Below the pieces are notes generated by a model. The model was not told the origin of the DNA. It saw only the letters and a program-made list of their open reading frames with translations, and ran no database searches. From positions 1 to 64,000 of the forward strand of contig JAUVNS010000007.1 in assembly GCA_030599585.1 (NCBI GenBank): a stretch of 64,000 bases of DNA, read 5' to 3'. The stretch comes from Promethearchaeota archaeon (GTDB lineage Archaea > Asgardarchaeota > Lokiarchaeia > Sigyniarchaeales > SOKP01). Positions within the stretch are counted from its first letter, which is position 1. Each line of letters opens with the position of its first letter. This document shows positions 18,357 through 34,810 of this stretch, piece after piece. The position numbers were made by a program, and so were the translations under genes.

Positions 18357-19151
18357 TCAATAATCCTTTAAGACTTCCTCAACGGTGTAATTAAGATGTA
18401 CGATTTTGGAAAGAGCACTAACAATTTTGGTAGGGTCTTTTGCTTGGAATACGTTCCTTCCAAAGGCAACACCTGCGCCTCCCGCTTGTATCGAATCATG
18501 AACTAATTGAAGTAAATCAGGAATTGTGTCTGTTTTAGGGCCACCAGCAATAATAACGGGGACATCAACGCTCTTTACAATATATTTGAAGGAATCTATA
18601 TCTCCCGTGTAGTTTGTTTTAACAATATCCGCCCCTAGTTCTGCACCAGCTCTTACTGCAATATTTACAACGTCTGGAGCATACTCATCAGCAATTTTTT
18701 TTCCTCTAGGGTATAACATAGCCAATAATGGTACGCCCCATTCTCTTGAGGATTCAATTATTCGTTGAGCATCCTGAAGCATTTCTGGCTCTTCGTCTGC
18801 TCCAATATTAATATGAATCGATACTCCATCAGCACCCATTTTTAAAGCTCGTTCTACGGAACATACAATTACTTTTTTATTCGGATCAGGCGCTAAGCTA
18901 GTTGCTCCAGATAGATGTATAATTAAACCAACATCTATTCCATATTGTCTGTGACCTGCTCCAACCATTCCAGAGTGCTCAATTACTGCGTTAGCGCCTC
19001 CTAAAGCAACTTTATCAACCATATCCGCTAGGTTCTCCAAACCTTTAATAGTTCCTAAGGTTAAACCATGATCCATAGGGATCATGATAGTTCTTTTGCT
19101 TTTCCTATCGAATAATCGCTCAAGTCTAATACTCTTTCCTAGGTTTGACAT
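18357..19151 (-). CDS. DhnA-type class I aldolase (2-amino-3,7-dideoxy-D-threo-hept-6-ulosonate synthase / FBP aldolase)
   Basis: [33 protein letters not shown] (Schiff-base Lys), AGGPK, GRNVFQ. Confidence 0.9.
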
Positions 19152-19241
19152 AATAATAATTCAATTTGAATGATACTTAAGTTATTGATAGTAAATGACA
19201 GTAGAAATATAAAATTATACCTCTGATGGTTTAGAATTAAT

Positions 19242-19316
19242 TCACCAAGGTCTTTTTATTGTCGTACTCCTACTCATCTTAGACTTGTCTGGATGATCTA
19301 ATTTGTAATGAATTCC
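19242..19316 (-). pseudogene. nadB: orphan copy of the nadB 3' end (att-like direct repeat, left island boundary)
   Basis: Translates GIHYKLDHPDKSKMSRSTTIKRPW* versus the nadB C-terminus GIHYNLDHPEKSEMSRSTTLRRPW*. 59/75 nt identical by manual count. There is an in-frame stop 7 codons upstream and no start codon. Confidence 0.9.
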
Positions 19317-19481
19317 CCAGCTTTTTTTTATTTTTTAAACTGATAGGTTCATGTTCATGTTGAGGATAAACTAAATGCTGGCTAATTTCCTCAGAGATAA
19401 GAGACTAGGGGAGGAAGTTATTGATGATTTCTGCTTTTTCTATGTATAAAGCTAAGCCTCCTCAAAGAGTAGGGTTTTATT

Positions 19482-20573
19482 CTATGTCTTTAAAGAAGAA
19501 CTTTCTTCTTCAATGTAGAATTCTATACTTTTAATAATAAAATCAGGTAATGTAGAGTAATCTTTAGTTTTAGCGAAATTTAGCCAGGAATCTTTCACAT
19601 CTTTTGATACATAAAATGATATTTTTTCCTTATCCTTTTTAAAATCGAAAAGAGGAGGAAGAATCTCAGTTAAATCTCCACCTATTATTATTATATCAGC
19701 GGCTTTCTTAACGATATTTTTATGAGCGTTAAACGCAATTGCTAGCCCAACTGCTCCAAAAGCTTCTAGATCGTTAACATCGTCTCCAATATATACACAT
19801 TGATTAAGGTCAGGATACCCATTTTTATCAACAATTCCCTCTTTCAAAGCAAGTTCTTCCATAATTTTTATCTTGTCTTTATAATCAGTTTTACTTAGCT
19901 CCCAGCTTTTTAATAAACCGTCGTCATCAAAAAACAATTGACAATGAGCCCTGATATGATTGACTTCATCTAATTCTTTTTTTGCTTTTTGTGCAAGCCT
20001 ATAGAAACTACCTGTAATTATAGCTGTTTTAATATTACTTTTTTTCAATATTTGAAATACTTCTTTAGCACCTCGAGATAAAATTCGACTGTCAGTCACT
20101 TCCTGGAAAGTTTTCTCATCCAATGGTATGATTTTCAAGGTATTGCAAGTAGCTTCTTTCCATTTTACATAGTTGTCAACATCGTCACCATAAAGACCAT
20201 TTTCAAAATTTCTCTTAAGCGCTTCGTGTATATCGTATTGCCCTAATCTTTTGAAGAGGAGATCCCATGTACTAATAGCAACCTTTCTACTTATACTTTC
20301 ATGCCATGGTTTCTCAAACAAAACTCCATCCATGTCAAAAAAGACCATTTTATATTTAGAATCCTTGAATTCAATTTCATGTTTTCCATGGAGTAATTTT
20401 TCAATTTTATTTCGACAAGATTTATACTCCGTAATTTGGGTATCAAGAAGATATAATGCTTCTTTTGCTTTTTCGTGATTTATCTTATCAGGTTTTCCTA
20501 AATATTTTCTTTCCCCTTTAGCTAAAAAATAAAGATAGATACTATCTTTTCTTTTCTGTTCTATTAAGCGCAT
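19482..20573 (-). CDS. HAD phosphatase (phosphoserine phosphatase-like) with N-terminal extension and C-terminal ribbon-helix-helix-like domain
   Basis: FFDMDGVL, AIITGS, K, YIGDDVND; C-terminal KISFYVSKDVKDSW..FAK...STLPDFIIKSIEFYI is RHH-like. Confidence 0.8.
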   Translation of the reverse strand: MRLIEQKRKDSIYLYFLAKGERKYLGKPDKINHEKAKEALYLLDTQITEYKSCRNKIEKLLHGKHEIEFKDSKYKMVFFDMDGVLFEKPWHESISRKVAISTWDLLFKRLGQYDIHEALKRNFENGLYGDDVDNYVKWKEATCNTLKIIPLDEKTFQEVTDSRILSRGAKEVFQILKKSNIKTAIITGSFYRLAQKAKKELDEVNHIRAHCQLFFDDDGLLKSWELSKTDYKDKIKIMEELALKEGIVDKNGYPDLNQCVYIGDDVNDLEAFGAVGLAIAFNAHKNIVKKAADIIIIGGDLTEILPPLFDFKKDKEKISFYVSKDVKDSWLNFAKTKDYSTLPDFIIKSIEFYIEEESSSLKT

Positions 20574-20822: not shown

Positions 20823-22058
20823 TTAAGAATTATGTTTTTTAACGATAATCCGTTTTTTGTTTACCAATAGTACAACAACGCCAAGCATTGTTGCTAACGC
20901 TAGATACATAAAGTCGAATCCCGGTATCTCATCTAGGGACACTGGGACACTAGGGCAACCAGGATCATCCGCTGGAGGGTCATCTGTGCTTATTTGAGGG
21001 ACTACGATTGTACCGTTAGCAATCTGGAGTTTGACTAGATCAACTTTATCTTTCACTGATTGAGGGATTATAGAGTCATAATGATGGTAAGGATATAGAT
21101 AATTACCAATGGGTAATTCCCAAGATAGTCCACCCAGATTTTGCATGGCTGTTCCATTTTCTATTTGCTCCACGACTAAATCCATCAAAAGTGATGTATT
21201 CATCCCAATGCTAGTCATTGTGTGATCAGGTGCTAATACGGCTTGATCAGCAACCGTTCCAATTACTGTAATATTAGCTTCTACGCAAGCAGCGATAACT
21301 CCTCTTCCGGTCGTATCAGCTACCTGAACAACGATATCAACGTTTTTTGTAGCTATTAGCGATAGCGTGATCTGTTTACCAATCGCAGCATCACCCCAAG
21401 TACCAGCAACCCTAGCAAACACGCAAGCATCATCATTAACGCTCTCAACGCCTGCTCTAAAAGCATAGAACTCCATTGCCAGGTATTCATACCATTCTCC
21501 AAAAACTACACCTGTTCTATTGGTTTTTGTCATCAACCCTGAAAGTACTCCAGCTAGATACATACCTTCTGTCTGGAAAGCAGGATGAAGACCCACCGTA
21601 TTATTTGGTGCAGGTACGTATGGGTTAAGACCAGGTATCTGAACAAATAAGGTATCATTGTGTTTTTCAGCAAGACCTGCGAAGTAGGTAGTTTCTATGA
21701 ATTGACCTCCGACACAGAAAATCACATCATATCCGGCCGCACCGTAGTCATCTATTACTCGATACTGATCGTTATAATCTACTTGTCGTGATATGCTTAT
21801 ATTCCAACCATGAACGGACTCCAGTCTGTTCATACTTTGTATTGCCACATAAGAGAATCCCAGGTCGGTTTCATCACCACCCAACACGAGAGCAGCCTTG
21901 TATGCTCCATTACTGGTCCTCAACTCAGTTTGTGATTCGTCATTTGCGATTAGGTTTCCATTTGGTACCGACATTGAAATCACAAGTATTGCAGTTATGA
22001 CGATTACGAGGTAACTAAATTTCTTATTCATTTTTACTTTCATTTTTAATCTATCCAT
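20823..22058 (-). CDS. BMP-family ABC substrate-binding protein (purine/nucleoside type) with PGF/Loki-CTERM anchor
   Basis: D.GFS, GYDVIF..G, EG.YLAG..SGLMTKTN..G, GTWGD...GK, G.GVI.A, IGT..DQ...AP; C-terminal EIPGF + TM helix + basic tail. Confidence 0.88.
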   Translation of the reverse strand: MDRLKMKVKMNKKFSYLVIVITAILVISMSVPNGNLIANDESQTELRTSNGAYKAALVLGGDETDLGFSYVAIQSMNRLESVHGWNISISRQVDYNDQYRVIDDYGAAGYDVIFCVGGQFIETTYFAGLAEKHNDTLFVQIPGLNPYVPAPNNTVGLHPAFQTEGMYLAGVLSGLMTKTNRTGVVFGEWYEYLAMEFYAFRAGVESVNDDACVFARVAGTWGDAAIGKQITLSLIATKNVDIVVQVADTTGRGVIAACVEANITVIGTVADQAVLAPDHTMTSIGMNTSLLMDLVVEQIENGTAMQNLGGLSWELPIGNYLYPYHHYDSIIPQSVKDKVDLVKLQIANGTIVVPQISTDDPPADDPGCPSVPVSLDEIPGFDFMYLALATMLGVVVLLVNKKRIIVKKHNS

Positions 22059-22079
22059 TCGTTTTTACTTTCATTTTTA
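22031..22079. repeat. 18-bp direct repeat (TTTTTACTTTCATTTTTA x2)
   Basis: Identical copies at 22031-22048 and 22062-22079; each reads ATG AAA GTA AAA (MKVK) on the minus strand. Confidence 0.85.
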
Positions 22080-22182
22080 GTAGATTATTTATTTAATTCT
22101 TTATCATTTATAAAACATTGATCATTTTTATGTTTATTATAAAATATATGATAAAATCACAATAATAAATTAATGATTTAAT

Positions 22183-23433
22183 ATGACAAATTCGGTAAGT
22201 TCCAAAATTGAAGAAGCGAATGAAGAGGCAGTCAAGAGGATACTATCGGCTGAATGTAACCTAGTTGATATTGATTCTGCTGGTAATATTATCCCAGGTT
22301 TTAAGAGTAATTTATTTACTCATGCAGGACCACCAATTGAGTGGGAAAGGATGTGTAATACACAGAAATATGCTATTAAAAATCTGATAATGTATGAGGG
22401 ATTAGCTGACACACCTGAAAAAGCTGCAAGACTAGCTGAAACCGGAGAAGTTACAATCGAACCCAACCATAACTACGATGCAGTTAGCGGAATGTGCGGA
22501 GCTACATCGGCATCCCTTCCAGTTCTTGTGGTTAAGAATCCGGTACATGGCAATACTTCTTATTGCCTCCAACAAACAAGTTTGACTGCTTTCGGTAATA
22601 AGTATGAGACAAGAGATGAGCTTGATTTTGTTCGAAATACGCTTGCACCAGTATTGAAAGCAACTATCAAGGAAGCGGGTGGGATTGGCCTTAAAGAAAT
22701 ACTTGCAACCGGCATACAGATGGGAGATGAGCTTCATGGCAAGTTAGATGGCACTAGGAGTGTCTTTGTGAGTGGTCTTCTACCTTATATTGTGAGGACA
22801 GATTTCGATAAAGATACCCTTACTCAAGTTGGGGAATACTTCAACACCCATATAGGACGCTGGTATGGAGGAAACTTGATGATGGCATCCTGCAAGGCGA
22901 TGATGGATCCAGCTAAGAACATCGAGTACAGCACAATAGTAACTGCAATGGCCAGAAATGGAGTGGATTTTGGTATTCAAGTCAGCGGACTTGGGGACGA
23001 ATGGTTCACTGGGCCTGCGGGGACGATAATTGGGTACACCTTTCCAGGATATCGATCGGAAGACTCTACATTAGACCTTGGAGATAGTGCCATTTCAGAA
23101 TCGAGAGGTTTTGGAGGGATGGCAGCACCAGCAGCGCCTGGTCACGCAAGATTCATAGGAAGAGATTTCAAAGATGCTGTCGAGCGCACTAAACAAATGT
23201 ATGAAATTACCCAAACAGAGGATACTCTTTTTCAGATTCCTTACCTTGACTTCCGTGGTGTTCCTGTGGGGATTGACATAAGAAAAGTCGTTGAAACAGG
23301 AATTTTACCTATTATAAATACTGGTATGGCTCACAAGGACGGTGGTCACCCTATGATCGGAGGGGGTAGGGCTGATGCTCCTATGGAATGTTTTAAAGGA
23401 GCTTTAGTCGCCTTTGCTAAGAAGTATTCATAA
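22183..23433 (+). CDS. allG: DUF1116 protein (YlbE/YahG; AllG-like oxamate carbamoyltransferase subunit)
   Basis: HAGPPI.WE.M, P.H...AV..M.G, MGDE.H, VTAMARNG.DFGI..SG, D.GDSAI.E..G.G, GIDIRKVVETGILP.INTG.AH. Confidence 0.88.
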   Translation: MTNSVSSKIEEANEEAVKRILSAECNLVDIDSAGNIIPGFKSNLFTHAGPPIEWERMCNTQKYAIKNLIMYEGLADTPEKAARLAETGEVTIEPNHNYDAVSGMCGATSASLPVLVVKNPVHGNTSYCLQQTSLTAFGNKYETRDELDFVRNTLAPVLKATIKEAGGIGLKEILATGIQMGDELHGKLDGTRSVFVSGLLPYIVRTDFDKDTLTQVGEYFNTHIGRWYGGNLMMASCKAMMDPAKNIEYSTIVTAMARNGVDFGIQVSGLGDEWFTGPAGTIIGYTFPGYRSEDSTLDLGDSAISESRGFGGMAAPAAPGHARFIGRDFKDAVERTKQMYEITQTEDTLFQIPYLDFRGVPVGIDIRKVVETGILPIINTGMAHKDGGHPMIGGGRADAPMECFKGALVAFAKKYS

Positions 23434-23471
23434 TAAAATAAAGATTGTAAACATAAAATGGCTGATTTTGT

Positions 23472-24482
23472 ATGGTGAATAAATACCTAACTTATCCAAT
23501 TGGAGTGTTTGTAGCTCTAGTTGTCTTTTCTATCACCCTACTATTGTTGGGCTACGATCCTATAGAAGCTTTAATGTCGATACCTACCGGTGCTTTTGGT
23601 AGTCCAACTAGCACTAGTGAAACGATAATCCGCTTTATTCCACTACTAATGACCGCAATGGCTTTCCTGATTGCTTTCAAAGTACGATTCTTGAATTTAG
23701 GTATCGAGGGGCAGCTCTACAGTGGTGCGTTAATAGCGTATTTGATTGGTGCTGGGATGGGATCATTACCTGGCTTAATCTCAATACCATTAATTTTTAT
23801 TGCAGGTTTCATTGGAGGAGTATTATGGTTGGGAATCCCTCTTATCATGAAGACCAAGCGGGGAATTAACGAAATATTTCCAACTGTCGTTATGAACTTC
23901 ATTGCGATGTTTGTAATCGCTTGGCTCACGACTGGACCACTCAAGGATCCAGATTCGTTCAATCCAAGAACACCTTTCCTTCCAGAGTCAACTTGGTTGC
24001 CATTGATACATCCCGATTACAGGCTTCATGTATTTGTCTTTCTAGCGATTATTATTGCTATTGTTCTTTATATTGTTCTGTTTAAAACAACGATTGGATA
24101 TAAAATTAGAGCTGTTGGACAAAATCCAAGGGCTACCGCACATGGAGGGATTAAGGTAACTAGGGTTGTACTTATTGCAGGAATGTTAAGTGGGGGAATA
24201 GCTGGAATAACAGGGATGATGGAAATTTTTGGTATACATCATTTCTTGATTCAAGGTTTTTCCCCCGGTTTTGGCTATCAAGGAATAGCAGTAGCAGCTT
24301 TGGGAGGCTTTCATCCTATTGGCGTAATCATTGCTGCTTTCTTCTTTGCAGTTCTACAAATCGGAGGAGAATCTATGCAGCGGGGTGCAGGAGTCCCTGT
24401 TGATTTCATTTTCATTATGCAGGCAGTGCTAGTTCTCACAATCCTGATAGTTAAAAATTATATTAATATGAGGAATTCATAA
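23472..24482 (+). CDS. nucleoside/purine ABC transporter permease (BPD_transp_2)
   Basis: FLNLGIEGQL..G, INE....V.MNFIA, GYKIRAVGQNP.A, G.GY.GIAVA.LG..HP.G. Confidence 0.9.
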   Translation: MVNKYLTYPIGVFVALVVFSITLLLLGYDPIEALMSIPTGAFGSPTSTSETIIRFIPLLMTAMAFLIAFKVRFLNLGIEGQLYSGALIAYLIGAGMGSLPGLISIPLIFIAGFIGGVLWLGIPLIMKTKRGINEIFPTVVMNFIAMFVIAWLTTGPLKDPDSFNPRTPFLPESTWLPLIHPDYRLHVFVFLAIIIAIVLYIVLFKTTIGYKIRAVGQNPRATAHGGIKVTRVVLIAGMLSGGIAGITGMMEIFGIHHFLIQGFSPGFGYQGIAVAALGGFHPIGVIIAAFFFAVLQIGGESMQRGAGVPVDFIFIMQAVLVLTILIVKNYINMRNS

Positions 24483-25438
24483 TGGCAAATCTTATTACAT
24501 CGATCATTGCAGGAGGTATTATACTCGCAGTTCCGATTCTTTTTGTTTCCCTTGGCGAGATTTTTAATGAGCGAGCAGGAACAATCAACTTAGGGCTCGA
24601 GGCAACAATGTCGCTCACTGCCTTCGTAGCATTGTGGGTAACTTTCGAAACGGGGGATTTCTTCTTAGGCACATTTGCAGCTCTCGTTATTGGTGCAGGT
24701 GTTGGAATGCTTCATAGCTTTACTACTATCAAAATGAGAGTCAATCAACTGATAGCTGGATTGCTACTCCTGACCTTTGCTGATGGTTTAGCTAACTTTC
24801 TTAATAGTATTGTCATCGAAGGAATTCGGATAGCGTTGATTGCAGATCCATTAGCATATCCAACGGCAGTACCAACTGTCACTCCCCTCCCCTCTATTTT
24901 CATCCCTTTTCTGAGCGATATTCCGTGGTTAGGGGAGATTTTCTTTCAACATAATGAATTTGTCTATCTCGCTTACTTCCTAGCGATTGTTTTCGGGTTG
25001 ATCCTATACAAAACCACGTGGGGTCTCAAAATCAGAGGGGTTGGAGAGAATCCTGAAGCGTGTGATGCCGCTGGTATTAATGTTAATCGGATTAGACATC
25101 TTTGTGACATTTTTAGTGGGGTAATGGCCGGTTTGGCTGGGGCATCTATAACATTGGGATACATAGGGCTCTATGATAGCGGTATTGCAGGAGGACGTGG
25201 CTGGATCGCAATCATAGTCGTAATTTTTTCACGTTGGAGTCCTTTCAGAGCCATTGTGGGTAGTCTGATTTTTGGTATGGGATATTCTCTAGCGGCTAAT
25301 CTAATAGGCTTTTTTGGTCCTCTGGTATCGTACTACTTCCTCTTATCTTTGCCCTATATCGTGGCCTTAGTGGTAATCTTATTGGTTGGGACGAAAAAAG
25401 GTCCCGCCGCATTAACTGTACCGTATTGGAGAAAATAA
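24482..25438 (+). CDS. nucleoside/purine ABC transporter permease
   Basis: GEIFNERAGTINLGLE, GLKIRGVGENP.A.DAAGINV, GRGWIA....F..W.P, LPY, P.AL..PY; TAATG overlap with the upstream gene. Confidence 0.9.
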   Translation: MANLITSIIAGGIILAVPILFVSLGEIFNERAGTINLGLEATMSLTAFVALWVTFETGDFFLGTFAALVIGAGVGMLHSFTTIKMRVNQLIAGLLLLTFADGLANFLNSIVIEGIRIALIADPLAYPTAVPTVTPLPSIFIPFLSDIPWLGEIFFQHNEFVYLAYFLAIVFGLILYKTTWGLKIRGVGENPEACDAAGINVNRIRHLCDIFSGVMAGLAGASITLGYIGLYDSGIAGGRGWIAIIVVIFSRWSPFRAIVGSLIFGMGYSLAANLIGFFGPLVSYYFLLSLPYIVALVVILLVGTKKGPAALTVPYWRK

Positions 25439-25450
25439 AGGTATAATATT

Positions 25451-27034
25451 ATGGCTGTAACGGTAATTATTCGTGAAGATACATATCGAGACTCTGTGAT
25501 TCTTATGAGACTATCTAACAAAGTTACTGAACTCGATGGTGTGTTACAAGCCGGAGTTATCATGGGCACACCTACCAACAAGGAATTTCTGAAAGTCTTG
25601 AACCTTCTAACCGAAGAGGCCAGACAGGCAGGTCCAAACGATCTGATCATAGCTCTAGAGACTCAAGATGAAAAGAGCATGGCTCAAGCACTCTCAGAAG
25701 TTGACAGGCTCCTTACAACTCGAGTTTCAAAAGATGAGAACAAAATAATCCCCGAGACACTGGATTCCGCACTTAGATATATGAGTGACGCAAATCTAGT
25801 TATTATTTCAGTACCAGGAGTATACGCTAAGAGAGAAGCATCGAAAGCTCTTAAAAAGGGAATTAATGTCTTTATTTTTAGCAGCAATGTATCTCTTGAA
25901 GATGAATTAGAGCTCAAACAATTAGCTCTGAAAAAGGGTCTCTTGGTCATGGGTCCTGACTGTGGAACTGCAATAATCAATAATATAGTTTTGGGCTTTG
26001 GGAATGTTGTTAATCAAGGAAATATTGGATTGGTAGCAGCAGCTGGAACAGGATTGCAAGAAGTTTCTACTCTGATACATAATAAGGGTTTTGGTATATC
26101 CCAAGCAATTGGAACTGGTGGAAATGACCTTTCCAAAACTGTTGGAGGCATCATGATGATTGAAGGCATAAAGCGTCTAGAACAAAATGATGAAACTAAA
26201 GTTATTATTCTCATTTCTAAACCACCCAATCAAGAGATTAGTCAAAAAGTACTAAAAATCGCAAGTCAAGCCAGTAAGCCAATAGTAGTGAATTTTCTTG
26301 GGGGTGATATTGAAAATATTGAAAGTCAAGGTTTTAATGCTGCCAAAACATTAGAAGATGCAGCTTCCACAGCTTGTGCTCTTGTTCAAGGAAAACAAGC
26401 AATAAAAAATACATTTACTGCAACAAGAGAAGAAATTCTTTCTATTGCCCAATCAGAATGGAATAGATTGGCAACTAATCAGAACTTCGTACGGGGTCTA
26501 TATTCAGGTGGAACTCTCTCCTATGAAGCGTTGATTCTTATGACACCTCTGCTCGAAGAAATTTTCTCTAACTCACCTTTAAAACCTCATCTGAAGCTAG
26601 AAGATTCAACTTTAAGCAAGAACCATACCTGTGTGGATATGGGTGCGGAAGAATTCGTAATTGGAAGACCACACCCAATGATTGATTACACACTCCGTAA
26701 TCAAAGAATAATCAAAGAAGGAAATGACCCTGAGACAGCTGTTATTCTTTTAGATGTGGTTCTAGGGTATGGGTCTCACGATAACCCAGCAGCCGAACTT
26801 ATATCATCCATACAAGAAATAAAAACCAATGCTGAACGTGATGTGAGGTACTTGTCTGTCGTGGCTTCCATCGTGGGTACATCCCTCGATCACCAAGAAT
26901 TTCATAAACAATCTAAGCTTCTGGAGGATGTAGGTGTGATAATTATGCCCAGTAACGCACAAGCAGCCAAATTGGCAGCTTTAATTGCGACTAGAGGTGC
27001 TATACAAGATAAACTTTTTGAGGGGGGAGTCTAA
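25451..27034 (+). CDS. fdrA: FdrA (AllF-like; succinyl-CoA ligase-like fold)
   Basis: Y.DSV.LM, MGTP.NK, ISVPG.YA, MGPDCGTAII, GTGLQEV, AIGTGG.DL, RGLYSGGTL, GRPHPMID, LLDVVLGYG.H..PA. Confidence 0.92.
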   Translation: MAVTVIIREDTYRDSVILMRLSNKVTELDGVLQAGVIMGTPTNKEFLKVLNLLTEEARQAGPNDLIIALETQDEKSMAQALSEVDRLLTTRVSKDENKIIPETLDSALRYMSDANLVIISVPGVYAKREASKALKKGINVFIFSSNVSLEDELELKQLALKKGLLVMGPDCGTAIINNIVLGFGNVVNQGNIGLVAAAGTGLQEVSTLIHNKGFGISQAIGTGGNDLSKTVGGIMMIEGIKRLEQNDETKVIILISKPPNQEISQKVLKIASQASKPIVVNFLGGDIENIESQGFNAAKTLEDAASTACALVQGKQAIKNTFTATREEILSIAQSEWNRLATNQNFVRGLYSGGTLSYEALILMTPLLEEIFSNSPLKPHLKLEDSTLSKNHTCVDMGAEEFVIGRPHPMIDYTLRNQRIIKEGNDPETAVILLDVVLGYGSHDNPAAELISSIQEIKTNAERDVRYLSVVASIVGTSLDHQEFHKQSKLLEDVGVIIMPSNAQAAKLAALIATRGAIQDKLFEGGV

Positions 27035-27204
27035 TGACTGAAAAAGAAAAATTGTTTAACACAGATCTTAAAGTCATCAATATTGGAATCGAAATGTTTG
27101 CTGAAGATTTGGAGAAACAGAATGTAGCTGTAATCCACGTAAATTGGCGACCTCCTGCTGGAGGCGACCTCGATATACTCAAACTTCTAGAAAAATTGGA
27201 ATAA
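27034..27204 (+). CDS. small FdrA C-terminal-like domain protein (56 aa)
   Basis: Not in the ORF track. MTEKEKLFNTDLKVINIGIEMFAEDLEKQNVAVIHVNWRPPAGGDLDILKLLEKLE*; TAATG overlap with fdrA and a G-rich SD-like sequence upstream. Confidence 0.85.
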   Translation: MTEKEKLFNTDLKVINIGIEMFAEDLEKQNVAVIHVNWRPPAGGDLDILKLLEKLE

Positions 27205-27218
27205 AGCTGAATAAAACA

Positions 27219-28130
27219 ATGCAAAAATTAATTATCGCATTGGGTGGGAACGCCTTCATCCAAAAAGGTCAAATAGGAACAGCAGAAGAGCAATTTGCCA
27301 ATATTCGAAAACCTGTTGCTTCCATTGCCGAACTCTCGAAATTATATAATATTGTAATTACTCATGGGAATGGACCTCAATCGGGGGCTTTACTATTACA
27401 ACAAGAAGCATGTGATGAGGTCCCAAAAATGCCGTTATCCATCATCGGGGCGCAAACACAAGGTCAAATTGGGTATATGATTGAATCTACACTGGACGAA
27501 GAGCTAATGCGGCTAGGTATATCCGATGAAAGACTTTTTCTCACGGTGTTGACTTATACCTCTGTAAAAAAAGAGGATCCTGCATTTGCGAATCCCACAA
27601 AACCCATTGGACCTGCTTATCCAGATCCCCGTCCAGGATTTGTCAAAATGTCACGGGGGTGGCGCCGAGTGGTACCATCACCGAAACCAATTAAAATCTT
27701 CCAATGGCGAGAAATTAAGTATTTATTGGAAGAAGGGTTTATTGTCATCGCTTGTGGCGGAGGAGGAATCCCTGTGTACAAAAATAATAATTGTCTTCAC
27801 GGAGTCGAAGCGGTCATTGATAAAGATTTAGCTACTGCCAAACTCGGGGAACAAATCGGAGCCGATATCCTCTTGATAGCCACAGATGTAGAAAAAGTTG
27901 CCATCAATTTCATGCAACCGGATGAAAAATTTCTCGATTCATTGACCATTTCCGAAGCAATAAAACTTTTAGACGAAGGACAATTTCCTAAAGGAAGCAT
28001 GGGCCCGAAAGTCCAAGCGTGTGTTAATTTTATTGAACAAGGCGGCGCTCAAGCAATCATTACCTCGATTGATCATATCCGAGATGCCCTCCTTGGAAAG
28101 ACAGGTACACATTTTAAAAAACTCACTTAA
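27219..28130 (+). CDS. arcC: carbamate kinase (AllK/ArcC family)
   Basis: Probable start ATG 27219 (MQKLIIALGGNA); THGNGPQ, TQGQIGY, DPAF.NPTKPIG, WRRVVPSP.P, GGGGIPV, EAVIDKD, GSMGPKV. Confidence 0.95.
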   Translation: MQKLIIALGGNAFIQKGQIGTAEEQFANIRKPVASIAELSKLYNIVITHGNGPQSGALLLQQEACDEVPKMPLSIIGAQTQGQIGYMIESTLDEELMRLGISDERLFLTVLTYTSVKKEDPAFANPTKPIGPAYPDPRPGFVKMSRGWRRVVPSPKPIKIFQWREIKYLLEEGFIVIACGGGGIPVYKNNNCLHGVEAVIDKDLATAKLGEQIGADILLIATDVEKVAINFMQPDEKFLDSLTISEAIKLLDEGQFPKGSMGPKVQACVNFIEQGGAQAIITSIDHIRDALLGKTGTHFKKLT

Positions 28131-28194
28131 TTAAAATAAATATTTCTTATAAATTAGATTAATTGATCTAACAAATTAAAATAGAGGAAAAAAC

Positions 28195-29910
28195 ATGACA
28201 CAAAAAATGACTCGAATAAAAACTGGAATTTCGAGATTTAGGAACAGCTTAAAGTTAAGGATAAGACCGGAACAGCATAAAGTTAAGAAAAAGCGTTACA
28301 ACAAAGATATTAAAATTAAGCATGTTAAACCAGGCGAATCATTAGTAGAGATGCAGGGGATCACAAAGCGATTCCCGGGTGTGTTAGCTAATAATGCTAT
28401 TAACTTTGAGCTAAAAGCGTGTGAAGTCCATGCTTTGCTTGGAGAAAACGGTGCAGGCAAAACAACCTTGATGAATATCTTATACGGACTCTATCGATCT
28501 GATTCAGGGGAAATTAAAATTCAAGGAGTCCCGGTTCACCTAAAATCGCCAAAAGACGCAATTGCAATTGGAATTGGGATGGTTCACCAACATTTCACAC
28601 TAATTCCGGCAATGACTGTTGCTGAGAATATTATTCTGGGGATGAAGACCTCCAAAGGACCTCTTTTGAATCTCGCTGAAGCCGAGAAACAAATCATTGA
28701 GCTCTCAAAAACCTACAATCTAGAGGTTGACCCCAAAGCAAAGGTAGAACAGCTCCCAATGGGTATTCGCCAACGAGTTGAGATAATAAAAGCTCTGTAT
28801 CGTGGTGCACGGATACTTATTCTAGATGAACCGACCTCAGTTCTCACTCCTTTGGAAATCGACGATTTTTTTGACGCTCTGAAATCCATGGTAAAAGAGG
28901 GATTAACTGTTGTTATTATAACTCATAAATTACCCGAAGTCTTTGCCATAAGTGATCGAGTAACAGTCCTTAGGGATGGATGTTTTGTTGAGACAATTGA
29001 GACCAAATTAACTAACCCAAATGACCTTTCGATGAAAATGATTGGAAGAGAGATTCTTTCAGGACAGAAGGGGATCAATATCAAACGTGGTAAGGTTGTT
29101 CTTGATGTTCAGGGTCTTAAAACCATGAATGATAAAGGTCAAGAAGCCCTCAAGGGTATTTCTTTCTCAATTCACGAGGGTGAGATACTGGGATTTGCAG
29201 GAATCTCAGGAAATGGTCAGAAAGAGCTCGCAGATGTACTCTCTGGTATGAGACCCTCTACAGATGGCACGGTTCACTTTCTGAAGCAAGATATAACCAA
29301 TTTTAAACCAAAGAAATTAATCGAATTAGGAATAGGGGACATCCCTGAGGATCGGGCAGGAATTGGTCTTGTTATGAACTTTTCCATCGCAGAAAACTTG
29401 ATTTTAGAGTCCCATACCAAGACTCCATTCTCAAATAGTTGGTTCTTGCCTTTCAACAAACAATATTTCTTGGATAAGAACGAAATCCGAAAGTATGCAG
29501 AAAAAATTATCCAAGAATATGATATTGATACACCAAGTCCTAATATTCCAGTAAGAAACCTGTCAGGTGGTAACCTCCAGAAGGTTCTCTTGGCAAAAGT
29601 TCTCTCTAGAAATCCAAAATTGCTTATTGTCGCTCAACCCACAGCTGGATTAGATGTTGGAGCCTCAGAATTCATATCTAAAAAGCTATTGGAGCAGAAA
29701 AAAAGACAAGTGGCCATTTTACTTATCTCGAAGGACTTAGAAAAAATTATGACCCTGAGTGATCGCATCGCAGTCATCTATGAAGGTAAAATTGTAGGGA
29801 TAGTTCCTGTTGCTGATGCAAAAATCAGTGAAATTGGTCGGATGATGACTGGTGTTGAAAATGTGTCCACTGATGAAAATCCTGAACAAGGTTTGGGAGA
29901 ACAATGTTAA
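28195..29910 (+). CDS. ABC transporter ATP-binding protein, tandem NBD (nucleoside/sugar CUT2 type)
   Basis: GENGAGKT, GMVHQHF, ILDEPT, ITHKL, IPEDR, LSGGNLQK, QPT.GLDVG. Confidence 0.95.
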   Translation: MTQKMTRIKTGISRFRNSLKLRIRPEQHKVKKKRYNKDIKIKHVKPGESLVEMQGITKRFPGVLANNAINFELKACEVHALLGENGAGKTTLMNILYGLYRSDSGEIKIQGVPVHLKSPKDAIAIGIGMVHQHFTLIPAMTVAENIILGMKTSKGPLLNLAEAEKQIIELSKTYNLEVDPKAKVEQLPMGIRQRVEIIKALYRGARILILDEPTSVLTPLEIDDFFDALKSMVKEGLTVVIITHKLPEVFAISDRVTVLRDGCFVETIETKLTNPNDLSMKMIGREILSGQKGINIKRGKVVLDVQGLKTMNDKGQEALKGISFSIHEGEILGFAGISGNGQKELADVLSGMRPSTDGTVHFLKQDITNFKPKKLIELGIGDIPEDRAGIGLVMNFSIAENLILESHTKTPFSNSWFLPFNKQYFLDKNEIRKYAEKIIQEYDIDTPSPNIPVRNLSGGNLQKVLLAKVLSRNPKLLIVAQPTAGLDVGASEFISKKLLEQKKRQVAILLISKDLEKIMTLSDRIAVIYEGKIVGIVPVADAKISEIGRMMTGVENVSTDENPEQGLGEQC

Positions 29911-29932
29911 TATTTTTGAGGACTGAGATTAG

Positions 29933-30940
29933 ATGAGGACAATCACTATGACCGATTCGAAGTCGCCCTATTATCGTTCAGGCCATCAATCTAAATCCTT
30001 GTACTTGAATGCTCAATCAATAGGTCTGACTGCTTATGACAGGATTCAAATACAAGGCAAAATTGGTTTGATACATAGTATATTCCAGCGTGTAATCAAC
30101 ATCACCGTGTTGGGGGACCGATTGATCAGTTTGGTCGGACAAGATGTAGGACAAGGATCGTTGAATATACTTGTAAACATTCCTAATCATATTAATCTGG
30201 TAACAATCGGGATAAAGAGGGGTGATATCGTGACACGAGTCGGTGATTCGATACTTATAGGTGAGAATGTTATTGTGATATTAACCCAAAGGACTGAACT
30301 ATGGGAGCCAACGAGAAAATTTCAAGCTAATCTGCAACCCCTTAAGACAATTATGGCAAACATAGAGGTTATGAGAGAAGTTGCTCTTGTTTCTGATCAC
30401 CTCAGTGGTTTAGGTGAATTAATTCCTTTTACCCAAATTAACGGTCTTAAAGATTCCAAAACTGAAAAAATAGGTTCAGTTTCTAATTTGGCGTTACCTC
30501 ATATTTCATCAATGCTCAAAGCAATAAAATCAGGCCATTCCCAGGACCTAAAACGAGTTACCAAACATCTTGTAGGATTGGGTCCAGGACTAACTCCTGC
30601 TGCTGATGATATGCTCCTCGGGTTAATGATTAGTATGTTGTATATTTCAGAAAACTTTAATCAAACGATTATTGATGTCAAGAAAATCAATAAAGATATA
30701 ATATCAATCATTTCAGGGAGAACTACAATTATAAGCGAAGAGTTCTTAAGAGAAGCTTCAGTTGGAAAAGTAAATGAAGCTGTCACCTCTCTTATGGAGA
30801 ATTTGTTGACTTCAAGACAAAGAGAGTTAGAGAATTATGTTAGAAATGTCTTGGATTTAGGTGGTACATCTGGCACAGACACTGTGTTTGGAATCATCCT
30901 TGGGTCACATTTAATGTTTGACGATATATTTAAAAATTAA
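29933..30940 (+). CDS. allH: DUF2877 protein (YlbF/YahE; AllH-like subunit)
   Basis: IHSIF..VIN, LVGLGPGLTPAADD.L.G, TT.IS...L, G.TSG.D...G. Confidence 0.88.
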   Translation: MRTITMTDSKSPYYRSGHQSKSLYLNAQSIGLTAYDRIQIQGKIGLIHSIFQRVINITVLGDRLISLVGQDVGQGSLNILVNIPNHINLVTIGIKRGDIVTRVGDSILIGENVIVILTQRTELWEPTRKFQANLQPLKTIMANIEVMREVALVSDHLSGLGELIPFTQINGLKDSKTEKIGSVSNLALPHISSMLKAIKSGHSQDLKRVTKHLVGLGPGLTPAADDMLLGLMISMLYISENFNQTIIDVKKINKDIISIISGRTTIISEEFLREASVGKVNEAVTSLMENLLTSRQRELENYVRNVLDLGGTSGTDTVFGIILGSHLMFDDIFKN

Positions 30941-30964: not shown

Positions 30965-32536
30965 CTACCAAGGTCTTCTGAGAGTAGTAGACCTGCTCAT
31001 TTCAGATTTTTCTGGATGATCTAAATTATAATGAATTCCACGACTTTCTTTGCGTGAGATAGCGCTTACAATTATAATTTTAGCCACTGTAGCTAAATTT
31101 CTAAGTTCGACGAGATTCTTTTCTATTTTAAAATCCCAATAATATTGATTGATTTCATCTTGTAACATGTTAATCCTTTTTTTAGCACGCTGAAGTCGCT
31201 TATTAGTGCGGACTATTCCTACGTAGTTCCACATAAATCTTCTAATTTCGTCCCAATTTTGCGTAATAATAACCGCTTCAGTAGATGGAACGGCATGACC
31301 TGGTTCCCATTGCTCAAATTCTTTAATTTTTAAATCAGAAGATAACGATGTTAAAGTTTCGGCGCACTCATGAGCGCTCACTATTCCTTCAAGTAGAGAA
31401 TTACTTGCCAAACGGTTCGCACCGTGAAATCCCGTACAGGCAGATTCTCCTATAACATATAGATTCTTTACTTCCGTAGATCCATCAATTCCTGCCATTA
31501 CGCCTCCGCAACAGTAGTGAGCTGCAGGGACGACTGGTATAGGATCCTTGATTATGTCAATGTTAAACTTTAGGCATGTTTCGTATACTCCAGGGAAATG
31601 GTTTTTGATAAAACTTGGTGTCTTATACGATGAGATATCTAAAAGAACGTGATCATCTCCAGTTTTCTTGAGTTCTGCGTCTATAGCTCTTGAAACGATG
31701 TCTCTTGGGGCTAATTCTTTGGAAGGGTGATAGTCCTGCATGAACTCTTTACCACGAACATTTTTCAAAATTGCTCCTTCGCCTCGCATCGCTTCAGTAA
31801 TCAAAAAGGATTTGGCATATGGATGGTAAAGGCAAGTAGGATGGAATTGATAGAATTCCATATTCGAAATAGTCGCTCCAGCACGATATGCCATTGCGAT
31901 TCCATCCCCCGACGCTATATCGGGGTTAGTAGTATAAAGATAAATCTTACCTGCACCACCTGTTGCTAAAATTGTTGCTTTCGCAGCAATGTTGTGAATA
32001 ATTCCGCTTTCTTGATCTAAAACATAAGCTCCATAACATTTGTAATTACTAGCATATAGATTGATCGCACACCAATGTTCTCTAATTTCAATATTCTTTA
32101 TTTTTTTTACGTTATCTATAAGGTTCTTTTCTATATTTTCACCTGTTTGGTCATTTACATGAAGAATTCTTCTTTCCGAGTGTCCACCTTCTTTACCAAG
32201 GTCGTAATTTCCAGTATCGTTTCTCGTGAACTGAACTCCCATTGTAATTAATTCATTTATTCTTTCTGGTGCTTGAGTTACAATTTTTCTTACTACGGGC
32301 TCATTACAAAGTCCATCTCCCGCGCTTAATGTATCTTGAATGTGTTTCTCAAAATTATCGCTATCACTCCAAACACTTGCGATACCACCTTGAGCATAAT
32401 ACGTACTTCCCTCTTCCAAGTTTTCTTTAGCAATTAGTAGTATATTATCATCAGGGGAAAGATGCGCTAATTTTATTGCTAATGATATCCCAGCAATACC
32501 ACTACCTACAATAAGAAAATCTGTTTTAGTATTCAA
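30965..32536 (-). CDS. nadB: L-aspartate oxidase
   Basis: GSGIAG, STYYAQGGIA, EGGHS.RRILH..D.TG, LATGG, EFYQFHPT, ITEAMRGEG, ELAPRDIVSRAI, AAHY.CGG, HGANRLASNSLLE. Confidence 0.96.
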   Translation of the reverse strand: MNTKTDFLIVGSGIAGISLAIKLAHLSPDDNILLIAKENLEEGSTYYAQGGIASVWSDSDNFEKHIQDTLSAGDGLCNEPVVRKIVTQAPERINELITMGVQFTRNDTGNYDLGKEGGHSERRILHVNDQTGENIEKNLIDNVKKIKNIEIREHWCAINLYASNYKCYGAYVLDQESGIIHNIAAKATILATGGAGKIYLYTTNPDIASGDGIAMAYRAGATISNMEFYQFHPTCLYHPYAKSFLITEAMRGEGAILKNVRGKEFMQDYHPSKELAPRDIVSRAIDAELKKTGDDHVLLDISSYKTPSFIKNHFPGVYETCLKFNIDIIKDPIPVVPAAHYCCGGVMAGIDGSTEVKNLYVIGESACTGFHGANRLASNSLLEGIVSAHECAETLTSLSSDLKIKEFEQWEPGHAVPSTEAVIITQNWDEIRRFMWNYVGIVRTNKRLQRAKKRINMLQDEINQYYWDFKIEKNLVELRNLATVAKIIIVSAISRKESRGIHYNLDHPEKSEMSRSTTLRRPW

Positions 32537-32712
32537 GAGACTTATCAGCTTAATTCATTATTTATTTAAGTATTTATTATTTACTCTATTTGTAACTACT
32601 TAATCGTAAATTTTTTTTAAGATTTTTCATTTCTACACTTAATTTACCATCAATTTAAAATTGCTTAAAATTTAGATGGCTATCTATAATTTTGATTTGC
32701 ATTCTTAGAGAA

Positions 32713-33210
32713 ATGACAAAAATAGAGAAGGTACTTTTTTTATGCTCAGGGAATTCTTGTCGTTCCGTATATGCCGAATATTATGCAAAATGGCTGAAAA
32801 GTACATCTTATAAAGAGGAATTACGATATGTCAATTTTGACTCCGCAGGAATTCGCCATTATTTTGAAACTCCACGCGAGGGCACAGTTAAATATTTAGC
32901 TTCTAAAGGAATAAGCGTAGATGGGTTTGTTGCTAAGGATATAACAGAAGAATTGATAAATACACAAGATCTAATTCTAGGATTCGAAGCTCGATACCAC
33001 ACAAACAAATTAAAGAGAAAATTTAAACACATTGAGAACTTAGATAAAAAAGTTTTTTTATTACTTGAATTTGCTGGTCAAGAGAACAATTGGGAGATCG
33101 AAGACCCTATTCATATGCCACTTGTAGAATATAATAAAATTCTCCAAGTTATTGAAGCTGGTGTTAACAAATCTATAGAAAAAATAATTAAATTTAATAA
33201 ATCAGAATAA
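32713..33210 (+). CDS. low-molecular-weight protein phosphatase (LMW-PTP fold) 1
   Basis: P-loop CSGNSCRS, DSAG, D-loop IEDP; probable start ATG 32713. Confidence 0.88.
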   Translation: MTKIEKVLFLCSGNSCRSVYAEYYAKWLKSTSYKEELRYVNFDSAGIRHYFETPREGTVKYLASKGISVDGFVAKDITEELINTQDLILGFEARYHTNKLKRKFKHIENLDKKVFLLLEFAGQENNWEIEDPIHMPLVEYNKILQVIEAGVNKSIEKIIKFNKSE

Positions 33211-33220
33211 AGGTTAATCA

Positions 33221-33706
33221 ATGAATAAAATCTCTAAAGTATTAATCACCTGTTTTGGGAATACAGCAAGAAGTCCCGCAGCAGAATATTTAGCACGAGA
33301 CTATGCTAAAAAAAAGGGAGCTGATTTAATCTTTGAAAGTGCTGGCTTCATAAATGCTTTTTCATATATGCAACCGGAATCTCAAGAATATTTGGATGCT
33401 AAAAGTATAAAACATTCTGACTTTCACCCTCAAATTATCAATCGTACATTGCTTGAAAAACAGGATTTAATTATTACTATGGAGAAGTCGCATGTAGATG
33501 AAATAAGAGATAGCTACCCCGGGATTGTTGCCATCGATAAAAAGACATTCACTCTAAGAGAATTTAACGGAGAAACAGACAAATTAGATATTATCGATCC
33601 ATATTACGAGAGTACTAATACTTACAAGAAAGTTCTTAAACTTATTGAGGATAATATCGAAAAAATGGTAAATAAAATAATACAGATTAATCAATCAAAA
33701 TCTTAA
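33221..33706 (+). CDS. LMW-PTP family phosphatase 2
   Basis: CFGNTARSP.AE, ESAG, DLIITME..H, DIIDPYY. Confidence 0.9.
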   Translation: MNKISKVLITCFGNTARSPAAEYLARDYAKKKGADLIFESAGFINAFSYMQPESQEYLDAKSIKHSDFHPQIINRTLLEKQDLIITMEKSHVDEIRDSYPGIVAIDKKTFTLREFNGETDKLDIIDPYYESTNTYKKVLKLIEDNIEKMVNKIIQINQSKS

Positions 33707-33798
33707 TACTTTTTATTATAGCCTAGAATTTACCTTTCTATATTTGGTTAACATCAAATTGTTTATATACATGTAGTATATGTTATAATTGACTTGAA

Positions 33799-34269
33799 AT
33801 GAAAAGAAAAGAAAAAGAGCGAAAAAAGGGAATAGAACAACGACAACAAAAAACAATTAAAAATCCTCGTTTAGAAGCGCTTTCAGAGATTTCGGAGTTA
33901 ATAAATGATGCAAATGATTCCTATATGAAAATGGATTATGATAATGCAATCAATTACTCCGAAAAAGTGATTAGATTAGCTATAAAATCAAATTTTGAAC
34001 AACATATAGAAGAACAACAACAATTCTTGATAAAAATTGCTGAGAAAGTACAAGAAAAGTATTTTGTTTCAGAAATTAATGAAGCGATCAAAGAAATTGA
34101 AAAAATCTATAATATACTTCTTGAAGCTAAACAGATTTCTCAAGCTCATGAAATTTTAGAAACTTTTAAGAGGCACTATCAAGATAAGATTGATTTAGAT
34201 TCTATACCTTTAATAAAAGAATTAGAAATGAAGGATCGAAGAGAATGGGTAAAAAATAAAGTAGAATAA
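33799..34269 (+). CDS. all-helical (TPR/MIT-like) module protein, paralog of 43343 and 44491 ORFs
   Basis: LEALSEISEL...Y....Y..AI...EK.I.LA...AHEILETFK..Y...IDL.SIPL aligns with both paralogs. Confidence 0.75.
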   Translation: MKRKEKERKKGIEQRQQKTIKNPRLEALSEISELINDANDSYMKMDYDNAINYSEKVIRLAIKSNFEQHIEEQQQFLIKIAEKVQEKYFVSEINEAIKEIEKIYNILLEAKQISQAHEILETFKRHYQDKIDLDSIPLIKELEMKDRREWVKNKVE

Positions 34270-34324
34270 TAAATAATATTTTCAATCAATCCTTTATCAA
34301 ATTCCTCAGAAAAATAAACATATC

Positions 34325-34810
34325 ATGATTAGAAGAATTCTATTTATATGTTATGCAAATACATGCCGAACTCCCGCAGCTGAGAAATTAGCCGAACATT
34401 ACGCTAAAAAGTACGATCTAAAAGGAGTTTCTTTCGATTCCGCTGGTTGGCATATTGTATTTGATAATGCTCAATTAGAAACTATCGAATACATTACATC
34501 TAAAGGAATTGAAATGAAAGATTTTAGACCTAAAGCTATTACTCGATCGTTGGTAGAGAAACAGGATATTATTATTGGCATGGAAAGATACCAATTAACA
34601 AAGATCCGAAACAAATTTAAGGATATGAAAGAAATCTTGAAGGAAAAGTTGTATACTTTGAAGGAGTTCAATGGTGCGAGTAAAGAAGACCTTAATATTC
34701 CAGATCCTTACAAAACAGGAAAGAAACGGTACTTCGAGATTCTCGAAATAGTAGAGAAACAAGTCGAACTTCTCGTTCAGAAAGTTAAAAATATTAATCA
34801 AATAAAGTGA
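34325..34810 (+). CDS. LMW-PTP family phosphatase 3
   Basis: CYANTCRTP.AE, DSAG, DIIIGME, NIPDPY. Confidence 0.9.
   Translation: MIRRILFICYANTCRTPAAEKLAEHYAKKYDLKGVSFDSAGWHIVFDNAQLETIEYITSKGIEMKDFRPKAITRSLVEKQDIIIGMERYQLTKIRNKFKDMKEILKEKLYTLKEFNGASKEDLNIPDPYKTGKKRYFEILEIVEKQVELLVQKVKNINQIK

Follow-up and report, generated by a model that had tools for sequence, protein, structure and literature searches.

Here we describe a gene cassette on the first 64,000 nucleotides (nt) of contig JAUVNS010000007.1 (assembly GCA_030599585.1) of Promethearchaeota archaeon, a member of the Lokiarchaeia; this whole stretch is referred to below as the window. Between positions 20823 and 30940, the genes of an AllFGH-like carbamoyltransferase and a carbamate kinase are interleaved with those of an ATP-binding cassette (ABC) importer with a BMP-family binding protein. 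A preliminary description, made from the letters of the DNA, had named the BMP protein, DUF1116, FdrA and DUF2877 proteins, a carbamate kinase, two permeases and an ATPase. Open reading frame (ORF) listing and Pfam/NCBIfam scans found every one of these genes in its place, intact, full length when compared to homologues and above the curated family cutoffs. The BMP gene is divergent on the minus strand and the other eight genes are close-set on the plus strand, either overlapping or separated by 12-64 nt. The two arms are divided by an AT-rich intergenic region of 124 nt (22059-22182), which from reading the sequence is presumed to be the promoter region.

The enzyme genes were assigned as follows. 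AllG (DUF1116; 22183-23433, plus strand; PF06545, 205 bits against a cutoff of 27) is 39.6% identical to E. coli YlbE over 417 amino acids (aa) and matches PDB entry 3clq at 4.6e-100. AllF (25451-27034, plus strand; NF004760, 491 bits against a cutoff of 433) is an FdrA-type, succinyl-CoA-synthetase-alpha-like protein with CoA_binding and Ligase_CoA domains; it shows 36.5% identity to E. coli FdrA, with which it has the GRPHPMID motif in common, and matches PDB entry 3dmy at 1.1e-78. AllH (DUF2877; 29933-30940, plus strand; PF11392, 88 bits against a cutoff of 25) is 28% identical to E. coli YlbF over 112 aa. The PF11392 match covers only residues 213-324 of AllH, so that just the C-terminal ~110 aa align to the family, and the N-terminal 212 aa have no match in Pfam or PDB.

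Directly after AllF we found a previously unlisted ORF of 56 aa (27034-27204, plus strand), whose ATG overlaps the AllF stop codon (TAATG). By tblastn and sequence reading it corresponds to the detached C-terminal module of FdrA: the product is 41% identical to E. coli FdrA residues 510-555, the last 46 residues of that protein, which are encoded here in a different frame after the AllF stop. The small ORF is separate from AllF in 63/63 loci tested, and its ratio of nonsynonymous to synonymous substitution rates (dN/dS) is 0-0.17. It matches 738 representative protein clusters, and the best 150 of them are mostly stand-alone proteins of 53-120 aa, with a few fusions to proteins of ~600 aa. The 56-aa protein is probably a fourth subunit of the AllFGH-type enzyme. 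Since the small ORF is mostly stand-alone, the fusion seen in E. coli FdrA appears to be the exception and most AllFGH-type enzymes probably consist of four polypeptides, which is useful to know for anyone reconstituting such enzymes. One database protein of 5670 aa (P0129) carries 13 separate stretches matching the 56-aa protein; either a repeat protein or an error in gene calling could explain this.

The carbamate kinase (TIGR00746, 362.2 bits against a cutoff of 358.25) lies in an ORF at 27144-28130 on the plus strand; its real start is likely the ATG at 27219, from which both TIGR00746 and E. coli YbcF (AllK; 40.5% identity) align, giving a gene at 27219-28130. A second carbamate kinase is encoded on the same contig outside the window, at 163-164 kb (locus 161900-166400), next to an ornithine carbamoyltransferase (OTC), an ornithine aminotransferase and flavin adenine dinucleotide (FAD) oxidoreductases. 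The cassette kinase is 64.5% identical to this OTC-linked kinase and groups with it at 100% SH-aLRT (Shimodaira-Hasegawa-like approximate likelihood ratio test) support, compared to only 43-49% identity with the kinases of sister cassettes. From these comparisons the cassette kinase appears to be a paralogue of the arcC-type kinase of the host, and thus of Loki-type ancestry, and not of the sister-cassette kinases. The OTC-linked locus is the host arginine/citrulline-type locus and likely the source lineage of the cassette kinase. Because the second kinase already serves the OTC locus, the cassette kinase is presumably dedicated to the cassette. The incorporation of a host-type kinase is also an argument that Loki lineages have long made use of the operon. 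We also considered whether the cassette supplies carbamoyl phosphate to an organism lacking carbamoyl-phosphate synthetase; this was rejected, as carB is present.

The importer set is complete by Pfam, consisting of a Bmp-domain binding protein of the BMP/PnrA family (20823-22058, minus strand; PF02608, 123.7 bits), two BPD_transp_2 permeases, A (23472-24482, plus strand; PF02653, 127.6 bits) and B (24482-25438, plus strand; PF02653, 124.8 bits), and one duplicated, NupA/RbsA-like ATPase (28195-29910, plus strand; PF00005 twice; NF047930 at 482 bits, under its cutoff). As read from the sequence, the binding protein begins with a hydrophobic, signal-like segment and ends in a PGF motif, a membrane helix and a basic tail, the last three forming a predicted archaeal-type anchor. 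When the importer parts were scored against NCBIfam, the best models were those of a putative B6 system, at 66-482 bits with cutoffs of 400-670, and no equivalog cutoff was reached; for the binding protein the best model, a putative B6 binding protein, was far under its cutoff. The best PDB match of the binding protein is 7x0r "Lbp" (3.6e-24), and its family matches include the nucleoside binders BmpA, BmpD and PnrA. In the alignment to BmpA, the N-terminal SFN motif is GFS in the protein of the window. The ATPase ORF starts with a Lys/Arg-rich extension of ~46 aa (28195-28350), after which the conserved part begins with MQGITKRF. No family matches this extension. As tblastn against other Loki copies aligns ~551/571 residues of the ORF, most of the extension may be shared.

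When relatives of the cassette were searched for, the same cassette was found, with AllG 93-94% identical, in the metagenome-assembled genomes (MAGs) Promethearchaeota archaeon Loki_b32 and YT5_013 of the same GTDB family, which upholds the assignment of the host to the Asgard archaea (Loki type). Database relatives of AllG form a continuum from 99% down to 56% identity, sparsely labelled as Thorarchaeota, HeimC3, Nitrososphaerales, Methanomassiliicoccales and one Methylomirabilis. In both FastTree and IQ-TREE analyses these relatives form one clade with a support of 100 and a long stem, within which the Nitrososphaerales-labelled AllG (58-61% identity) falls, and its sister consists of two Chloroflexota sequences. 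Outside this clade are E. coli YlbE, Bacillota, Caldisericota, Planctomycetes-Verrucomicrobia-Chlamydiae (PVC) bacteria and the AllG proteins of three other Asgard families. Gene order was compared on unlabelled metagenome contigs of 7 kb or more (GC 0.35-0.66) that carry AllG of this clade. Permeases A and B come immediately after AllG wherever the contig extends, and ~30 contigs also carry the BMP protein and the ATPase, most of them with AllH, AllF and the small ORF and often with a carbamate kinase. In the sister Chloroflexota loci, AllF and AllG are likewise linked to a BMP-type ABC system. Transporter and enzyme are thus strictly co-inherited and form one conserved unit, and this linkage across ~30 contigs is the strongest support for a self-contained import-and-phosphorolyse cassette as the preliminary description had envisaged it, an idea further strengthened by the joint travel of both parts on the mobile island described below.

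The gene order of the Loki cassette differs from that of its sister cassettes, and the ATPase-AllH pair is inverted in two of three Loki MAGs. On 12 contigs, mostly those of the closest non-Loki relatives (AllG 62-77%), permease B is followed by an isochorismatase-family cysteine hydrolase that is most similar to RutB and BiuH, under the cutoffs of both, and 8 of these 12 contigs carry a second AllG paralogue, of another clade, after the small ORF. Neither the hydrolase nor the second AllG paralogue is found in the Loki cassette, where they were lost or never present; the two isochorismatase-like genes in the genome of the window are located elsewhere and are only 24-28% identical. In the sister cassettes L077, L082 and L134 (for example L134:1497-2420, minus strand) an ORF with a weak match to a phage-integrase SAM-like domain stands beside the second AllG paralogue, a hint that the sister cassettes are also mobile. 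Three other Asgard families (f16, f28 and f31) have an AllF-small ORF-AllG arrangement of unrelated clades (40-44% identity) with no BMP importer, present in 17/22 genomes of family f16; these loci look like separate acquisitions with other partner genes.

The preliminary description noted that the cassette has no upstream allantoin genes, and such a pathway was not found elsewhere in the genome either. When the 4.85-Mb genome was searched by tblastn with the complete E. coli all region, allC, allE and allA were not found. Family searches of the genome gave no AllC, ureidoglycolate lyase, PuuE-type allantoinase or urease, and only sub-threshold cupin matches for AllE; allantoicase was also not found, a weak negative since the model matched none of the control genomes. 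The one allB-like gene is a dihydroorotase (PyrC; TIGR00857, 286.7 bits against a cutoff of 279.05), and the two allD-like genes encode Ldh_2 proteins with sulfolactate dehydrogenase as best match (165-176 bits against the AllD cutoff of 496). As no upstream allantoin pathway was detected in the genome, the cell must take up the substrate from its surroundings. A splitting of biuret to urea followed by urease was rejected as a route, no urease having been found in the genome.

The cassette together with a HAD gene constitutes a laterally mobile island of ~11.6 kb between a deoC-like gene (DeoC/LacD-family aldolase; 18357-19151, minus strand; PF01791, 206 bits) on the left and nadB (L-aspartate oxidase; 30965-32536, minus strand; NF006567, 724 bits), the insertion target, on the right. 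An empty site is seen in four congeners (G248, G255, G233 and G234), where the deoC-like gene is next to nadB with nothing of the island between them and a gap of 88-94 nt, except in G233 where it is ~2 kb; in the closest congener, the proteins encoded on the flanks show 94-98% identity to those of the window. Homology to all other carriers extends from ~19351/19397 to 30929, beyond which their flanks are different genes. At the left junction (19141-19328, minus strand) a relic persists that comprises the recipient deoC-nadB spacer and the final ~85 nt of nadB, detected by NadB protein search as a fragment with internal stops; it is 95% DNA-identical to the G248 junction and ~75% identical to the 3' end of nadB as it now stands. 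Both ends of the island (19141-19328 and 30965-31050) therefore carry a nadB 3' end, the copies sharing a core of ~36 nt and the displaced copy being of recipient type. In the junction alignment, the last ~65 nt of the nadB gene in use are diverged from the congeners and the remainder is congener-like. Such a junction is compatible with either integration that brings a surrogate gene end or homology-facilitated illegitimate recombination; no integrase is present in the island. The bin has 8.9% contamination, and we considered whether the island is an assembly chimera or a contaminant. Both were rejected, since synteny with congeners continues through the flanks (90-98% identity) and the duplicated, diverged nadB end is retained at the junction, a pattern that excludes a chimera.

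The HAD gene (HAD-IB hydrolase, phosphoserine-phosphatase-like; 19482-20573, minus strand; PF00702/PF12710) belongs to the mobile unit. Among 135 genomes of the family it occurs in four, namely the three AllG carriers (G000, G177 and G228) and G230, an 88% complete genome in which AllG was not found. Its product has N- and C-terminal extensions, which we considered as DNA-binding or integrase-like domains; this was dropped, with no Pfam support and only generic HAD matches in a protein atlas. The cassette genes have a GC content of 0.36-0.43 compared to 0.326 for the genome, with the exception of the HAD gene, which is host-like at 0.31. AllG was detected in 27/400 Asgard genomes, in 0/41 other genomes of the genus of the window, many of them 95-100% complete, and in 3/54 genomes of a sister genus (g12). 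The island was thus acquired recently. A direct transfer from a bacterium to Loki was rejected: named bacteria in the collection reach at most 47% identity, and the closer relatives form a 56-90% continuum labelled as Thorarchaeota, HeimC3, Nitrososphaerales and Methanomassiliicoccales. To the right of nadB there are four tandem ORFs of ~160 aa each (32692-34810, plus strand), the first two of which belong to the low-molecular-weight phosphatase (LMWPc) family by Pfam; the number of ORFs in this run varies among congeners.

Divergence is uneven along the island. DNA identity to the closest island copy is 96-99% in the HAD gene, in AllG and from AllF through the ATPase, and falls sharply to 70-84% in the binding-protein and permease genes (20823-22058 and 23472-25438). 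Among carriers, pairwise protein identity is 52-87% for the binding protein versus 75-99% for AllG, and the relationships of binding proteins and permeases are incongruent with those of the enzyme genes; the binding-protein and permease genes are thus mosaic, with sharp edges. The enzyme genes are under purifying selection (dN/dS of 0.11-0.23 for AllG, AllF and the kinase), compared to 0.42-0.80 for the binding protein and permeases, which are still intact in the carriers. The mosaic importer genes could reflect allele exchange plus diversifying or relaxed selection on membrane and surface parts. Permease A of three other island copies, at L007:11350-12537, L008:11310-12503 and L069:3700-4900, has an in-frame insertion of ~65 aa with two extra hydrophobic helices that the allele of the window does not have.

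Taking these results together, we think it probable, though with some reservation, that the island carries a mobile, self-contained catabolic cassette that imports and phosphorolyses an acyl-urea. The surface-anchored BMP-family binding protein, the two permeases and the ATPase would import the extracellular acyl-urea. The four-part carbamoyltransferase (AllF, the small protein, AllG and AllH) would then cleave it with phosphate to give carbamoyl phosphate and a de-carbamoylated product, which would be oxamate if the substrate were oxalurate, and the kinase would convert carbamoyl phosphate and ADP to ATP, NH3 and CO2. The imported compound may be oxalurate or a related one, for example allophanate, 1-carboxybiuret or biuret. 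We infer which reaction runs, in which direction, on what substrate and to what benefit for the host. In the E. coli system AllFGH was biochemically shown to be an oxamic transcarbamylase and AllK a catabolic carbamate kinase (PMC11326118); this precedent, with the kinase gene adjacent, was invoked in the preliminary description and holds.

Several points weigh against this reading. A binding-protein-dependent ABC importer spends ~2 ATP per transport cycle, whereas each carbamoyl phosphate yields one ATP through carbamate kinase. The cell would at best break even, and a net gain from the substrate-level ATP proposed earlier is doubtful. Given this cost of import, the host likely benefits by using a scavenged ureide and recovering part of the energy, rather than by a net ATP-yielding fermentation. 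Archaea of the Loki type probably live by fermenting amino acids and are not expected to be short of nitrogen, so the selective benefit is unclear. Identity between the enzyme clade and the E. coli enzyme is only 36-40%, the clade forms a long separate branch, and its function is assigned by homology. The dN/dS of the binding protein and permeases could mean relaxed constraint. Finally, characterised BMP-family binding proteins bind nucleosides, riboflavin or similar compounds, and not ureides (PMC7093131).

The alternatives differ mainly in what is imported and whether the island is used at all. The enzyme could be a true oxamate carbamoyltransferase that releases oxamate from oxalurate cross-fed by allantoin-degrading neighbours. 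The subunit families are the same as those of the only characterised enzyme (PMC11326118), oxalurate cross-feeding has also been proposed for the homologous nitrifier clusters (PMC12625717), and the lack of an upstream pathway in the genome agrees with it. On the other hand, the AllG of the window stands in a long-stemmed clade apart from E. coli YlbE, a RutB/BiuH-like hydrolase and a second AllG paralogue are additional members of the closest non-Loki cassettes, the nitrifier cluster sits with biuH and triuret genes, and the island has no gene for oxamate use; we regard a substrate that is specifically oxalurate as possible but rather unlikely. Because relatives adjoin a RutB/BiuH-like hydrolase and nitrifier clusters biuH and triuret genes, the chemistry points to acyl-ureas generally. 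The proposal of oxalurate or some other N-carbamoyl compound is therefore kept in its wider form, with oxalurate as one of several candidates. A more specific proposal, which we offer tentatively, is that the AllF/small-protein/AllG/AllH clade is an undescribed, non-oxalurate phosphorolytic enzyme for another acyl-urea, such as allophanate, 1-carboxybiuret or biuret, and that the Loki lineage took over the cassette recently from another Loki genus and then rebuilt it with the lineage's own carbamate kinase and fast-changing uptake parts. If true, it would be an energy-conserving alternative to allophanate and biuret hydrolases.

It might also be argued that the importer is an ordinary nucleoside importer and that the AllFGH-like enzyme and the kinase use a carbamoyl intermediate that the cell itself makes from an imported nucleobase. 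The matches to BmpA, BmpD and PnrA would fit, and in print the homologous genes are annotated as a "bmpA-nupABC nucleoside transporter" (PMC12625717). This is improbable in our view: no nucleoside phosphorylase and no ring-reducing or ring-opening enzyme is found in the island or the ~30 cassette contigs, the only cyclic amidohydrolase that resembles AllB is PyrC, and the importer parts are far under every NCBIfam equivalog cutoff. The presence of the island in 1/42 genomes of the genus, the elevated dN/dS of the importer genes and the ample ammonia expected in the host could likewise suggest a recent passenger that is not, or no longer, used and whose transporter is drifting, with a function suggested by sequence similarity only. 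Such a passenger is very improbable given that no carrier examined has a broken copy of any of the ten genes, even the permease allele with the in-frame two-helix insertion being intact, that purifying selection on the enzyme genes and the 56-aa gene is clear, and that the host-type kinase built into the operon speaks for long use. Import and phosphorolysis of an acyl-urea by a cassette in use remains the reading that we favor.

The closest known systems are found in nitrifiers. Genes allFGHK with bmpA-nupABC were reported in 2025 in ammonia-oxidising archaea (AOA), a non-AOA Nitrososphaerales MAG and comammox Nitrospira; these clusters occur in genomes without upstream purine genes, for which oxalurate cross-feeding was proposed, and sit with biuH and triuret genes (mSystems 2025, PMC12625717). 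The cassette is therefore not new in kind. The nitrifier and Loki versions are alike in having AllF, AllG, AllH, a kinase, a BMP protein, two permeases and one ATPase and no upstream purine or allantoin genes, and the Nitrososphaerales AllG falls in the same well-supported clade as that of the window. The Loki version differs in that it has no biuH or amidase (gatA-like or atzF) neighbour, and in its rearranged gene order, its HAD gene, its host-derived kinase and its demonstrably mobile island. Full-text literature searches retrieved no paper linking Asgard archaea to these genes. The present results extend a recently described ureide-to-ammonia-plus-ATP module from nitrifier archaea to Asgard archaea, while knowledge of its chemistry stays as it was. 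New here are the island with its empty site, the ~30 contigs sharing the block, the host-like kinase and the mosaic, fast-evolving binding-protein and permease genes; with empty site, scar, host-derived kinase and mosaic transporter alleles, it is an unusually clean case of a gene block passed recently from one Asgard genus to another. The E. coli allFGHK operon (fdrA-ylbE-ylbF-ybcF; PMC11326118, PMC9843812) shares the homologous subunits and the presumed phosphorolysis of an acyl-urea to carbamoyl phosphate. However, it follows allECD, uses internally made oxalurate and has an NCS1 allantoin permease nearby, whereas the Loki cassette has ABC importer genes set between its enzyme genes, a separate 56-aa gene for the FdrA C-terminus and an AllG of another clade.

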